Part shown: positions 2,822-6,792 of the stretch, in pieces
Layout of the letters: each line of letters begins with the position of its first letter
Numbering within the stretch: the stretch's first letter is position 1
NCBI GenBank assembly: GCA_045546315.1
Contig: JAZQCN010000036.1
Span: 33,574-97,573, forward strand
DNA: 64,000 bases
From: Clostridia bacterium
GTDB lineage: Bacteria; Bacillota; Clostridia; UBA1381; UMGS1253
Direction of reading: 5' to 3'
Program-made: the position numbers and the translations under genes
The notes under the pieces: model-generated
Databases searched by the model: none
What the model saw: the letters and a program-made list of their open reading frames with translations, nothing else
Told to the model about the DNA's origin: nothing

Positions 2822-2992
2822 TTATGCCGCGCAGGACATAGCCGGTGAAAAGGGAATCAGGTGTAAGTCCTGAACGATACCAGTCGCTGTATGTGTTTTG
2901 CTTATATTCGTTGACGAAAGTCAGTCATTGGGAAACTGAGAAGGCAGAGTATGAGCGCGAAGGCACAAGTCAGAAGACCTGCTTTGATGTTA
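2822..2992 (+). promoter_or_regulatory. Cobalamin (B12) riboswitch aptamer
   Basis: The core GCCGGTGAAAAGGGAATCAGGTGTAAGTCCTGAACGATACCAGTCGCTGTA (2841-2890) matches the conserved GGTG-AA-GGGAA..GGTG.AA.TCC...C.CTGTA core. A B12-box AAGTCAGAAGACCTGC lies at 2967-2982. It sits on the same strand just upstream of CDS 3200. Confidence 0.75.
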
Positions 2993-3077
2993 TACCGTAA
3001 GTGTTTTTGCATAGGTATAATAGTTTTGCTGCGCTTGATTTTTTCAGGCGCACAAATTGTGAAGGTCACAGGAAAAC

Positions 3078-3116
3078 GCTGCTGTGGTAATTTTTAAATT
3101 ACCGCAGCTTTTTTTA
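3078..3116 (+). terminator. Rho-independent terminator, probable expression platform of the B12 riboswitch
   Basis: Stem CTGCTGTGGTAATTT / AAATTACCGCAGC followed by TTTTTTT (3109-3115), 84 nt upstream of the ATG at 3200. Confidence 0.7.
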
Positions 3117-3199
3117 TTGTCTGCGGTGTCGGGAGGTGGAAAAAAGAAAATTTTCGGCATTTTCAGAACGCAGATGAATTGTAGAAAGGAAGATGTAAC

Positions 3200-6103
3200 A
3201 TGAAACGAGTATGGAGTGTATTTATTGCACTGTGTATGCTTTTAAGTACGCTAACGCCAGTGGCAATGGCTGAAGAAAATGACATTTATTCGACGATGGA
3301 TGCGGGCATCGCTTCCGCCGCAGCTTATATCGAAACTTCGCTCGAAGCGTTAAATGAGAGCGGCGATGTCGGTTATGGTATTGAGTGGTATATCGTTGCA
3401 ATGCTGCGCGGCGGAAAAACGGTGGATGCAGCGATTTTGGATGCATACTATGCATCTGTGGTGTCAACCGTGAAAACGTGGACGGCGGAAACAAAGCCGA
3501 CCGACATAGAGCGTACTGCGCTTGCGCTTTGCGCGATGGGTAAGGATATCACGGATGTGGACGGCGTGAATCTTGCGGCGTTGATTTACAATAGTCCAAA
3601 GCTTTCGGATGGTGCAAACGAGCTGGCATATGCCTTGCTGGCGCTGGATGCCGCAAAAATCGAAATTCCGGATACAGCCGCGTGGAGCAGAGCATCCATT
3701 ACAGAAGCGCTGCTTGCCTTTCAAGCGACAGATGGCAGCTTCGGACTCTACGGAGCGGAAAACGGCGATGCGGATATTACGGCAATTTGCCTGCAGGCGT
3801 TAGCGCCGTATCGGGCGGATGCTGCGGTCGCGCAGGCGGTGGAAAACGGCTTAGCATTTTTGAAAACGACGATTTCTGAAGAATTTAACTATGCGGATAA
3901 TGTGAATACAACCGCGCAGGTTTTGCTTGCGCTTTCTGTATTGAATGTAGATGTGACGGATGCGGAGAACGGCTTTGCGAATGCGGAGAGCAACATTATT
4001 TATGCGCTGGAGCAGTACCGGAGTCCGGAGGGCAACGGCTACATGTATGGCGAAAATGTCAATTCGATGGCGACCGTGCAGGTGATGCAGGCATATGATG
4101 CGTATAAAAAGGCACATTTAGAGCAGGTATCGTATTGGGATTTTCCGCCAATCAATGTAGACGAAGAAGAGCCGACACCGCCGCCGACCGAGCCTGAACA
4201 GCCGGAGCAGCCTGAGCCACCGGAGCAGCCGGAACCGCCGGTGATTATCGAGCCGGCAACACCGCAGAATGTGTATGTGACCATCGTATCTGAGGGGCGC
4301 GTGGTAGAGGATAAAAACGGCGGATATGTCGCTCGCGCCTGTGTCAGTGTTGAGGACTGTAACCGCGATGGGCGCCTGAGCGTGGACGAGGCACTTTATG
4401 CGGCACACGAAGCCTACTATCCGGGCGGCGCTGCGGCAGGATACAGCTCGTATCGCGGTACACTCGGTTTGTCTCTTGCGATTTTATGGGGAAAGGGAAC
4501 GGCAAATACAAGCGCGGTGGCAGGCTATTGGAAGAACAATGCCGGCTGTATGAGCTTAGACGATGAAGTGCAGGCGGAAGACAGCATTGTTGCCTTCAAT
4601 TATTATGATGCAACCACATGGGCGGACAGCTATGCGTATTTTACGCAGAACAGTGTTACGGTAGAGGCCGGTAAAGCGGTTGAGCTTACGCTGATGCACT
4701 TAAGCGGCTACGACGCGGAAAACAATTATGCACAAATCTTTTCCGGATGCGCAGGCGCAAAGCTTATGCTTTTAGATACGGAAATAGAAATTGCCGGGAC
4801 AACCGATGCAGAAGGAAAGATAACGTTTTCGACAAGTGCATCGATGACGCCGGGGGAGTATACTTTAGTGGCATATAAGGAGGACAATTCGATTGTTCCT
4901 GCTGTTTGTAATCTGACGGTGCGGGCAAGAAGGCCGTCCTCATCCGGTAGCGGCAGTTCAGCAATTAAGGTGTATATCCGCGTTGCAGATCCGAGCGGTG
5001 AAACATATTTATCTAAAAAAGCGTATTCGGTCAGCAAGGGAACAACGGCATATGAATTGCTTGAAAAAACGGGGCTGGACATCGAAACCTCTATGAGTCT
5101 GTACGGTTTGTATGTTTCCTCGATTGAGGGGCTTTCCGAGTTTGACATGGGCAGCGGCAGCGGATGGATGTACTGCGTAAATGGTGTGTTTGTAGAAAAC
5201 TCCATAGATGCCTACAAGCTTTCGCGCGGCGACTATGTAGAGGTGCTTTACACGCGTGACTACGGCGAGGATTTAAAGAAAGAAGAAAAGCCGAGCGGCT
5301 CTGTAGATGCGGATGCGCCGAAAACCTATAAGGTTACTTTTGAAACGGACGGCGGCAGCAGTGTTGAAAGCCAGACCGTGCAGAAAAACAAGCTTGCGAC
5401 AGAGCCTGCAGCGCCGGAGAAAGAAGGGTTTGCGTTTGGCGGCTGGTATACGGACAGTGCGCTGACAAAGCCGTATGATTTTTCTGCAAAGGTAACGAAA
5501 AATGTGACGCTGTATGCAAAATGGACAGTAAAAGAGCCGCCGAAAAAGGAATTTACGGATAAGACCTATCCGGATGTGGCAGCGGATGCGTGGTACTACG
5601 AGGCAGTTAAATATGCTTACGAAAATGATTTAATGCAGGGCACGGAAAACGGATTTGAGCCGGAAAACGGCTTGACAAGAGCCATGCTTGTAACGGTGCT
5701 TTGGCGCCTGGATGGCGAAAAGGCGGCAGATGCTTCGATTGACTTTGCAGATGTAGAAGACGGCGAATGGTACACGCAAGCAATACGCTGGGCAATGCAG
5801 GAAGGACTTGTTTTCGGCAAGGATGCACAGCAGTTCGGCACGACCGATTTTATCACAAGAGAGCAATTTGTGGCGATTCTTTATCGCTATGTTGAAAGTA
5901 AGAATGCGGATTTTGAGCAAAATGCCGATGCGTTATTAACTTTTGAAGATGCAAAAGCAATTTCTGATTATGCAACAGAAGCAATGGCATGGGCGGTGGA
6001 AAACGGTATTTTACGCGGCAGAGAAAATGCCTGCCTTGCACCGGACGGTACGCTGACACGCGCGGAGGCGGCTGCGATTTTTATGCGTTTTTGTGCGCTG
6101 TAA
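3200..6103 (+). CDS. Secreted SLH-anchored multidomain protein; candidate surface cobalamin-binding protein
   Basis: Domain order, N to C:
- signal peptide MKRVWSVFIALCMLLSTLTPVAMA
- prenyltransferase/squalene-cyclase-type repeats (..FQATDGSFGLYGAENGDADITAICLQALAPY..)
- PEQ-rich linker (nt ~4160-4240)
- Ig-like region
- DUF4430-type block IKVYIRV..GSGSGWMYCVNGVF..LSRGDYVEVLYT (nt ~4960-5265)
- Listeria-Bacteroides repeat YKVTFETDGG..FGGWYTD..LYAKW (nt ~5327-5523)
- three SLH repeats (nt ~5551-6100)

RBS AAAGGAAG. Confidence 0.85.
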   Translation: MKRVWSVFIALCMLLSTLTPVAMAEENDIYSTMDAGIASAAAYIETSLEALNESGDVGYGIEWYIVAMLRGGKTVDAAILDAYYASVVSTVKTWTAETKPTDIERTALALCAMGKDITDVDGVNLAALIYNSPKLSDGANELAYALLALDAAKIEIPDTAAWSRASITEALLAFQATDGSFGLYGAENGDADITAICLQALAPYRADAAVAQAVENGLAFLKTTISEEFNYADNVNTTAQVLLALSVLNVDVTDAENGFANAESNIIYALEQYRSPEGNGYMYGENVNSMATVQVMQAYDAYKKAHLEQVSYWDFPPINVDEEEPTPPPTEPEQPEQPEPPEQPEPPVIIEPATPQNVYVTIVSEGRVVEDKNGGYVARACVSVEDCNRDGRLSVDEALYAAHEAYYPGGAAAGYSSYRGTLGLSLAILWGKGTANTSAVAGYWKNNAGCMSLDDEVQAEDSIVAFNYYDATTWADSYAYFTQNSVTVEAGKAVELTLMHLSGYDAENNYAQIFSGCAGAKLMLLDTEIEIAGTTDAEGKITFSTSASMTPGEYTLVAYKEDNSIVPAVCNLTVRARRPSSSGSGSSAIKVYIRVADPSGETYLSKKAYSVSKGTTAYELLEKTGLDIETSMSLYGLYVSSIEGLSEFDMGSGSGWMYCVNGVFVENSIDAYKLSRGDYVEVLYTRDYGEDLKKEEKPSGSVDADAPKTYKVTFETDGGSSVESQTVQKNKLATEPAAPEKEGFAFGGWYTDSALTKPYDFSAKVTKNVTLYAKWTVKEPPKKEFTDKTYPDVAADAWYYEAVKYAYENDLMQGTENGFEPENGLTRAMLVTVLWRLDGEKAADASIDFADVEDGEWYTQAIRWAMQEGLVFGKDAQQFGTTDFITREQFVAILYRYVESKNADFEQNADALLTFEDAKAISDYATEAMAWAVENGILRGRENACLAPDGTLTRAEAAAIFMRFCAL

Positions 6104-6123
6104 AACAGAGGAAGTGATTTCGG

Positions 6124-6792
6124 ATGCGGTTTTTGAAAAGGTATAAGGCGTATATCCTTGCGTGTATTTGTATTATCGCTGCTTTGTGCTTTGCCTTTTT
6201 TATGGGGGATGATGCACCTGCGCCGAAGGTAAATACGGAGACAGAAGTGACAGATGCGACAGCGGAAAAGCCGATTGCGGAGGAGAAGAAGAAAGAAATA
6301 GCGGAAAAACCACCTGCACCGCCAATGGCTGAAGTACAGGAAGAGACGAAAGTACAGGAGAATACGGAAAAAGTACAGGCAGAAGTATCGGCGGAAGAAG
6401 CGGAAGAAGAAAATGCTTTGCAGTGCACGCTGTCGGTGCGCTGTGATACGGCGCTCGGAAAAGCCGGAGAGAAAAACTCCATTTTGCCGCAGGATGGGGT
6501 GATTTTCGCAGGAGAAGGCCTTGCGTTTTCTGAAGGGGAAAGTGTGTTTGATGTGCTTTTGCGCGAAATGCAGACGCACGGCATTCCGCTTGAGTTTACA
6601 AAATCGCCAATGTATCAAAGTGTATATATCGAAGGCATCGGCAATTTGTACGAACGCGACTGCGGCAGTCAGTCGGGATGGATTTATAAGGTGAACGGTG
6701 AAAAGCCGGGTTACGACTGCTCAAATTATATATTAAAGCCCGGTGACAGAATTGAATGGGTTTATACCTGCGCGCTCGGCAATGATGTGTAA
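6124..6792 (+). CDS. Membrane-anchored DUF4430-domain protein
   Basis: N-terminal TM helix (ILACICIIAALCFAFFM), an acidic Glu/Lys-rich linker, and a C-terminal DUF4430 block (LQCTLSVRCD..GSQSGWIYKVNGEKPGYDCSNYILKPGDRIEWVYT). RBS GAGGAAGTG. It starts 20 nt after the preceding stop, so it is probably co-transcribed. Confidence 0.8.
   Translation: MRFLKRYKAYILACICIIAALCFAFFMGDDAPAPKVNTETEVTDATAEKPIAEEKKKEIAEKPPAPPMAEVQEETKVQENTEKVQAEVSAEEAEEENALQCTLSVRCDTALGKAGEKNSILPQDGVIFAGEGLAFSEGESVFDVLLREMQTHGIPLEFTKSPMYQSVYIEGIGNLYERDCGSQSGWIYKVNGEKPGYDCSNYILKPGDRIEWVYTCALGNDV

Follow-up and report, generated by a model that had tools for sequence, protein, structure and literature searches.

In a stretch of 64 000 nucleotides from the genome of a Clostridia bacterium (contig JAZQCN010000036.1 of assembly GCA_045546315.1), referred to here as the window, we analysed a two-gene operon that is preceded by a cobalamin riboswitch and encodes a secreted, wall-anchored protein with a predicted likeness to transcobalamin (gene 1) and a membrane-tethered protein carrying a second beta domain (gene 2). 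We consider it likely that the operon serves to capture corrinoids for import, as the extracytoplasmic capture arm of a B12 importer of the energy-coupling factor (ECF)-CbrT type. The riboswitch, the match of the predicted fold to transcobalamin and the conserved association between them, found in 28 of 28 close homologues with upstream DNA, make a surface corrinoid-capture role the best reading of the locus. An initial annotation had proposed surface scavenging of B12 by a transcobalamin-like fold, and the fold match and the unbroken riboswitch linkage both speak for this proposal, the binding itself being predicted.

In the leader of gene 1, the Rfam covariance model RF00174 identified a full-length cobalamin riboswitch aptamer at positions 2796–3000 of the forward strand (76.3 bits, far over the gathering score of 31.5; E 5e-17; model positions 1–189 of 189), and this was the sole Rfam match across the window. 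The initial annotation, which had recommended this search, read a riboswitch core at 2841–2890 and a B12 box at 2967–2982; both blocks align to the conserved RF00174 consensus, and the B12 box, AAGTCAGAAGACCTGC, lies at 2967–2982 inside the match. The riboswitch stands as called, except that the aptamer begins at 2796 and not at 2822, where the annotated stretch had been made to start. The accompanying terminator was seen both in a terminator scan and in a fold prediction: it occupies 3081–3115 of the forward strand as the expression platform (12-bp stem, 4-nt loop, T7), with the hairpin at 3081–3108 followed by the T7 and placed 81 nt downstream of the aptamer, and in the predicted fold of 2960–3125 this hairpin is dominant, appearing in both the minimum free energy and the centroid structure (z -4.8). 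A strong intrinsic terminator thus sits between the aptamer and the start codon of gene 1, and is predicted to act as a transcriptional OFF switch. The leader is 92% identical to that of the 90% relative (L001), with compensatory changes in one helix. Assignment of the riboswitch to the esterase gene upstream was rejected; the two share a strand, but the aptamer lies 3′ of the esterase stop codon and is conserved with gene 1 at loci where the upstream genes differ.

Gene 1 (3200–6103, forward strand) starts at 3200 with an AGGAAG ribosome-binding site ahead and encodes a protein of 967 aa with a Sec signal peptide (residues 1–24, cleaved between VAMA and EE). The mature protein is made up, in order, of an alpha/alpha toroid resembling the alpha domain of transcobalamin (residues ~25–310; positions 3272–4159, forward strand), a Pro/Glu linker (residues 319–345), a ‘mid’ domain (residues 356–575), a DUF4430/SLBB beta-grasp domain resembling the transcobalamin beta domain (residues 588–690; positions 4961–5269, forward strand), one Listeria–Bacteroides repeat (Flg_new, residues 710–774, 2e-21 in Pfam) and three tandem SLH repeats (residues 790–963; 93.8 bits, 6e-27). 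Pfam places DUF4430 at residues 614–685 (6.8e-14; 52.5 bits against a gathering score of 23.8), and the SLH repeats match the corresponding domain of Bacillus anthracis Sap (6bt4/3pyw) at 2e-12; no lipobox is present. For the toroid itself, in the N-terminal ~300 residues, the Pfam search gave no match. The toroids of relatives do match Pfam Prenyltrans or SQHop_cyclase, and a profile of 31 toroids (A6) matched squalene–hopene cyclase (1gsz, 3.2e-16) and drimenyl diphosphate synthase (7xq4, 1e-11), which places the toroid by sequence in the terpene-cyclase superfamily. The NCBIfam search yielded a specific name for neither the gene 1 nor the gene 2 protein.

Gene 2 (6124–6792, forward strand) follows after a gap of 20 nt, which holds a GGAAGTG ribosome-binding site, and encodes a protein of 222 aa with a transmembrane anchor at residues 9–27, a disordered, low-complexity acidic linker of ~70 aa (28–100) and a Cys-rich DUF4430 beta domain (101–222; Pfam match at residues 138–215, 1.7e-14, 54.4 bits against a gathering score of 23.8). 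A terminator-like hairpin with an 18-bp stem (6870–6909, forward strand) closes the operon, the next gene being convergent. Both proteins had been described in the initial annotation in much these terms. For gene 1, the signal peptide, toroid, PEQ linker, DUF4430 block, Listeria–Bacteroides repeat and three SLH repeats were all confirmed; for gene 2, we likewise found one N-terminal hydrophobic helix, the acidic linker and DUF4430. The profile searches that it had suggested put DUF4430 above the cut-off in both genes and recovered the toroid through the 31-toroid profile. Comparison with L001 gave dN/dS values of 0.156 for gene 1 and 0.182 for gene 2, which places both under purifying selection and led us to reject a reading of the operon as a decaying remnant.

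We modelled residues 25–697 of gene 1 with AlphaFold2, using an alignment of 65 homologues (mean pLDDT 90.7). The model consists of an all-helical toroid, the Pro/Glu linker (disordered), a mid domain with two lobes, another short stretch of disorder and a beta-grasp domain, and in it gene 1 has the two-domain fold of transcobalamin, an alpha6/alpha6 toroid together with a beta domain. The beta domain comprises strands 564–572 and 578–588, a helix at 593–599, a hairpin formed by 604–609 and 612–618, and strands 631–636 and 655–661; a beta-hairpin that follows the helix is the defining feature of the transcobalamin-like SLBB clade (PMC1796856). When the model was compared with all PDB chains by Foldseek, ranks 1–11 were taken entirely by transcobalamin, haptocorrin and intrinsic factor (E 2e-8 to 1e-6), the matches including transcobalamins 4zrp, 7qbg, 7qbe, 2bb6, 2v3n, 8ixt, 8ixu and 2bb5, haptocorrin 4kki and intrinsic factor 3kq4. 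The best matches of the toroid were 4zrp_A, 7qbg, 4kki, 3kq4 and 2bb6 (E 2e-8 to 4e-7), with terpene cyclases and prenyltransferase beta subunits ranking below these B12 carriers, and the beta domain matched that of human transcobalamin (5no0, TMt 0.74) and a Ruminococcus gnavus DUF4430 protein (3u7z, TMt 0.75). The structure prediction and search called for in the initial annotation thus returned transcobalamin, haptocorrin and intrinsic factor as the best PDB matches, and the Foldseek, profile and model results therefore uphold the toroid and DUF4430 assignments on which it had staked its proposal.

The mammalian carriers (PF01122; 2bb5, 2bb6, 4zrp, 2pmv, 3kq4 and 4kki) share with gene 1 the toroid, the hairpin-bearing beta-grasp domain and an extracellular location. 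They differ in that their alpha and beta domains are joined by a short linker, as in transcobalamin, whereas ~270 residues of linker and mid domain separate the two in gene 1; in addition, the gene 1 protein is anchored to the wall and is partnered by a separate, membrane-tethered protein with a beta domain only, and its binding of a corrinoid is a prediction.

A pattern scan, restricted to one genome per species, returned 55 related loci, all in metagenome-assembled genomes of uncultured Clostridia, Oscillospiraceae or Eubacteriales, mostly from the guts of ruminants and other animals. We treated as close homologues the loci L001–L029, in which the protein is 45–90% identical to gene 1. The survey of homologues for B12 riboswitches that the initial annotation had suggested gave a uniform answer: a same-strand RF00174 match lies upstream of the gene 1 homologue in all 28 of the close loci that include upstream DNA, scoring 45.7–77.9 bits and ending 0–440 nt before that gene, the first open reading frame. 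RF00174 was also found in L058 and in six distant loci. A homologue of gene 2 follows that of gene 1 just as regularly (27/27 close loci with downstream DNA). In nine loci (L011, L016, L021–25, L027 and L029) the gene 1 homologue has no beta domain of its own, and the toroid there can pair only with a beta domain of the gene 2 type; gene 2 is therefore the core partner, and this is evidence that the constant partner of the toroid is the membrane-tethered beta protein rather than the beta domain within gene 1.

In the relatives, the gene pair is usually followed by an importer. Two overlapping genes, encoding a CbiQ/EcfT protein of ~295 aa and then a protein of ~810–824 aa in which two ABC ATPase domains (EcfA-A′) are fused to a C-terminal S-component, come after the gene 2 homologue in 17 of the 25 close loci with enough downstream sequence to be informative, and most of the distant loci share this arrangement, as do human-gut contigs reached via gene 2 homologues, one of which has RF00174 upstream while another has none. 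The S-component part matches CbrT of the B12 ECF transporter 6FNP (E 9.8e-10). This linkage makes the gene pair of the window most likely the capture arm of an ECF-CbrT-type importer, and a CbrT-type S-component is the probable recipient of the captured corrinoid.

In the window itself, tblastn with the relatives’ ECF genes found no homologue over the whole 64 kb, and a dedicated group I ECF operon, with EcfT, EcfA/A′ and S-component encoded together, is absent from it. The initial annotation had correctly noted that the riboswitch-controlled unit contains no transporter and had concluded that capture and import would be genetically uncoupled. That conclusion holds for the window but fails for the family, most members of which have the ECF genes directly after gene 2. 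The missing transporter is a property of this genome, not of the system. The ECF genes are missing after gene 2 in eight of the 25 informative close loci, and L001 shares the non-coding tail that follows gene 2 in the window. Two further loci have a second RF00174 match directly before the ECF genes, the first preceding the capture genes (L047, 5558–5701 and 8422–8554; L052, 5563–5728 and 8669–8806); B12 can therefore regulate capture and import as separate modules.

From the arrangement described above we propose the following mode of action. At high intracellular concentrations of coenzyme B12, the RF00174 aptamer would bind the coenzyme, the terminator at 3081–3115 would form and transcription would halt before gene 1; when B12 is scarce, gene 1 and gene 2 would both be produced. 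The gene 1 protein would be secreted and held at the cell wall by its three SLH repeats, where the toroid and the DUF4430 beta-grasp domain, carried on flexible linkers, could close around a single corrinoid in the manner of transcobalamin. The gene 2 protein would present a second beta domain from its one-helix membrane anchor on an acidic tether of ~70 residues, and this domain would probably take the corrinoid over from the wall-bound binder and pass it to the importer’s S-component, which in this genome would be encoded elsewhere, beyond the 64 kb. Corrinoid binding, the hand-off route, the OFF logic and the location of the importer elsewhere in the genome are all points that we infer. Cobalamin brings the separate alpha and beta fragments of intrinsic factor back together, and it is bound by the transcobalamin beta domain on its own (PDB 5no0 series); both observations support such a two-piece mode of action. 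The more specific proposal, that the two proteins act as a split transcobalamin which relays corrinoids between wall and membrane, the route running from the SLH-anchored alpha(+beta) binder through the leashed Cys-rich beta domain to the CbrT-type S-component, we advance tentatively, its chances being in our view somewhat below even.

Several observations weigh against a corrinoid-capture role. How the alpha and beta domains lie relative to each other is not reliably given by the gene 1 model (pTM 0.57). Neither domain has any sequence likeness to transcobalamin, intrinsic factor or haptocorrin when PDB sequences are searched with phmmer and hmmsearch; gene 1, gene 2 and the profiles A1 and A5 retrieved none of these carriers from the PDB sequences, nor 3u7z, the A5 search being dominated by the low-complexity linker, and the Pfam scan gave no match to PF01122 (Cobalamin_bind) at E<0.1. 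RF00174 was below the gathering threshold or not found at ~15 distant loci with enough upstream DNA, and at L056. The 64-kb window contains neither importer genes nor B12-dependent enzymes, and the searchable literature, outside which many subscription papers lie, holds no biochemical report of corrinoid binding by any bacterial member. Finally, the toroid retains two of the three Asp residues of the terpene-cyclase DxDD motif, and a homologous operon of Lactobacillus sakei, lsa1836–1840, has been assigned to heme uptake on the basis of mutant phenotypes and docking.

This last assignment raises the question whether the same architecture might serve another ligand: heme, some other tetrapyrrole or, in place of complete cobalamin, a corrinoid that is incomplete, such as cobinamide. 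Burroughs et al. wrote of ‘B12 or its precursors’ without deciding, and for the archaeal members they suggested a distinct metabolite; ECF-CbrT handles cobinamide too (PMC5997447). We nevertheless judge a different ligand to be unlikely: the riboswitch before all 28 close homologues is a cobalamin riboswitch, the S-component of the relatives is CbrT-like, and heme acquisition is normally regulated by iron or heme rather than by B12, while capture of cobinamide would be a variant of corrinoid capture and not a contradiction of it. Much the same low probability attaches to the idea that the wall-bound binder hoards corrinoids, withholds them from competitors or stores them at the surface with no import at all. 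Sequestration of this kind would explain why transporter genes are missing from the unit and from the surrounding 64 kb, the same eight informative close loci lack ECF genes after gene 2, and very tight binders of the same fold, such as haptocorrin, act as scavengers in animals. Repression by B12, however, suits need-driven uptake, the membrane-tethered beta protein has been retained under purifying selection, and two thirds of the informative close relatives co-transcribe the pair with an importer; in L047 and L052 the importer has a riboswitch to itself.

We regard it as very improbable that the toroid is instead a surface enzyme of the terpene-cyclase/prenyltransferase type, or a thioester-domain (TED)-like protein that binds something other than B12, with the riboswitch reflecting an indirect metabolic link. 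Its nearest relatives by sequence are indeed squalene–hopene cyclase and drimenyl diphosphate synthase, there are weak matches to TED domains, and the family consensus DxDxTA aligns with the catalytic DVDDTA of squalene–hopene cyclase. In gene 1, however, the corresponding motif is DADITA (residues 190–195), in which the third Asp is gone, and alignment to squalene–hopene cyclase shows that the DxDD general-acid motif of class II terpene cyclases is not intact. An extracellular, wall-anchored protein would moreover have no source of isoprenoid substrate, and the toroid is without exception accompanied by transcobalamin-type beta domains, either in the same protein or in one encoded with it; it has B12 carriers as its best structural matches, and operons of its family are linked to a CbrT-like ECF importer. 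Corrinoid capture for import remains the reading that we prefer.

Competition for corrinoids shapes gut communities. In Bacteroides, BtuG and BtuH are surface-exposed, B12-riboswitch-regulated lipoproteins that capture corrinoids on behalf of a membrane transporter, BtuG being a beta-propeller that docks on the outer-membrane, TonB-dependent BtuB. The initial annotation had drawn this comparison, and it is one of functional analogy only; the fold is unrelated, the envelope here is Gram-positive, and the Foldseek PDB hits of the gene 1 model and of the mid domain included neither a propeller nor a BtuG/H match. To our knowledge, capture at the cell surface is a step understood in Bacteroides but not in Gram-positives, and ECF transporters are thought to operate without binding proteins.

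The initial annotation had further stated that, to its knowledge, no such system had been characterised in Firmicutes, and here it overstated the novelty, the idea having been put forward before. Burroughs, Balaji, Iyer & Aravind (2007, Biol Direct 2:4, PMC1796856) defined the transcobalamin-like SLBB clade and described surface proteins from low-GC Gram-positives in which an alpha/alpha toroid is fused to a transcobalamin-like SLBB domain, often encoded beside a second SLBB paralogue and CbiO/CbiQ genes in hosts usually without B12 synthesis; they predicted B12 scavenging computationally and proposed such bacteria as the source from which animals obtained transcobalamin. The locus in the window clearly belongs to this predicted class, with which it shares a low-GC Gram-positive host, signal peptide, wall anchor, toroid and SLBB (DUF4430) domain, extra Ig-type domains, a second SLBB paralogue in the operon, the linkage to CbiO/CbiQ (ECF) genes at the level of the family and the prediction of B12 scavenging. 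It differs in that riboswitch control is unmentioned there, the anchor is SLH here as against LPXTG, the mid domain was not singled out and the adjacent ECF genes have been lost from, or were never present at, this locus. What is added here is the strict riboswitch control within the clade, the CbrT-like S-component, the tethered beta protein as constant partner, the SLH anchoring, the unnamed mid domain and the existence of uncoupled variants such as the one in the window.

The L. sakei operon had also been studied genetically (bioRxiv 10.1101/864751), and our literature search found no further account beyond these two. That operon, Lsa1836–1840, which the authors assigned to heme, encodes split alpha-like (toroid) and beta-like (DUF4430) proteins, secreted separately, with EcfT, EcfA-A′ and an S-component, as in most of the relatives described above. 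It differs from the locus in the window in its assigned ligand, in that no SLH repeats, mid domain or riboswitch have been reported, and in having the ECF genes adjacent. The EcfA-A′-fused S-component of the relatives resembles CbrT of Lactobacillus delbrueckii (6FNP; eLife 2018, PMC5997447); ECF-CbrT itself is different in being a group II transporter with a shared ECF module, described without an extracytoplasmic binding protein (PMC5997447).

If the relay exists, ECF transporters would gain dedicated extracytoplasmic substrate-binding proteins, in a class defined by having none, and in gut Clostridia the ancestor of animal transcobalamin would have living relatives among bacteria. Corrinoid binding and hand-off, if demonstrated, would fill the Gram-positive gap and revise the rule that ECF transporters have no binding protein, and demonstrated binding would also test the 2007 proposal that animal transcobalamin came from Firmicutes. 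The family is widespread in uncultured gut and rumen Clostridia and links a transcobalamin-like fold with a B12 riboswitch and, mostly, a CbrT-like ECF importer; its worth lies in experimental follow-up rather than in a new concept.

The ‘mid’ domain of gene 1 (residues 356–575, 220 aa; positions 4265–4924, forward strand) consists of two beta-rich lobes in its AlphaFold2 model (pLDDT 96, pTM 0.90). It has no Pfam model, and its Foldseek matches in the PDB were generic Ig-like ones only. The ‘Ig-like region’ of the initial annotation is to be corrected to this domain, a conserved, unnamed family of its own. All 55 related loci have it together with the toroid and beta domains, in the order mid–toroid–beta in the distant ones, and across 59 copies 26 positions reach a conservation of at least 95%, among them D386, H403, W430, Y443, N446, C450, D455, F466, Y468, D476, Y478 and Y504–D505. 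Among 1.84 billion proteins, we found 729 cluster representatives at E<=1e-10, the contexts being stand-alone secreted proteins of 250–300 aa, tandem arrays and giant surface proteins, some of which lack DUF4430. Judged by these sequence contexts, the domain looks like a general Firmicute surface module that was recruited here, and like a candidate new domain family; it may act as a spacer, in contact with the wall, in docking or in binding of the ligand.

The gene 2 family, of which we found >1,000 clusters, has near-invariant cysteines at positions C101, C107, C180, C199 and C216 (alignment A5; window 6424–6771), within the motifs CTLSVRC, DCGxxSGW, YxCSxY and YTC, which the beta domain of gene 1 does not possess. 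Five being an odd number, a free thiol or a metal site is implied, and by analogy with BtuM it is conceivable that the cysteines include a cobalt-coordinating thiol. The sole solved bacterial DUF4430 structure that we found bears the title ‘putative metal binding protein’ (3u7z).

A number of variations were seen among the related loci. In ten of them, a second toroid(+SLH) lies between the gene 1 and gene 2 homologues, as a separate gene in L002 (8752–10368), L004, L006, L008, L009, L013 and L020 and as a fusion in L005, L007 and L014; it is divergent (28–34% identity to the gene 1 toroid), and these relatives have two toroids for their two beta domains, the window a single toroid for the same number of beta domains. 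The gene 1 homologues of L009 and L013 carry an N-terminal extension of 1000 aa. In L021, the capture operon is followed directly by a NiCo riboswitch (RF02683, 46.5 bits; 5930–6002) and a cation-efflux (CDF) gene (6033–6890), so that a corrinoid-acquisition unit adjoins a cobalt/nickel-export unit. Gut-1 RNA (RF01706) was found upstream of distant loci without a cobalamin riboswitch, at 18–101 and 150–231 of L039 and at 3657–3740 of L043, all on the minus strand. When the window is aligned with L001, homology at the DNA level starts ~15 nt ahead of the aptamer (2780–2800 against L001 5511–5530) and reaches past gene 2 to include the terminator region, with no DNA-level relation between the upstream flanks; the unit of riboswitch, gene 1 and gene 2 appears from this alignment to behave as a cassette placed in differing upstream contexts.

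The operon is flanked upstream by genes for an AraC regulator and an esterase and downstream by a convergent PL8 polysaccharide lyase gene and then a rhamnosidase-like gene, and the rest of the window contains glycoside hydrolases, AraC regulators, a GerA/B/C germination operon and housekeeping genes. Outside the riboswitch operon, no other B12-related gene and no ABC ATPase were found in the 64 kb. The GH39, GH10, PL8 and rhamnosidase-like genes, together with the AraC regulators, point to plant- or host-glycan-degrading gut Clostridia, and the germination receptor operon of the GerB/GerC/GerA type (22350–25873, forward strand) indicates that the source organism is a spore-former. Three predicted secreted proteins, all encoded on the minus strand (7124–10996, 15883–16809 and 45988–49056), have a C- or N-terminal Cu_amine_oxidN1 domain, and they include the PL8 polysaccharide lyase, which also has an F5/8 type C domain; together with SLH, this shows that the genome uses at least two different surface-display modules. 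The open reading frames at 7124–10996 and 10750–12921 overlap by ~250 nt on the minus strand, and the PL8 lyase probably begins at an internal start codon located downstream of the TTG that was listed.

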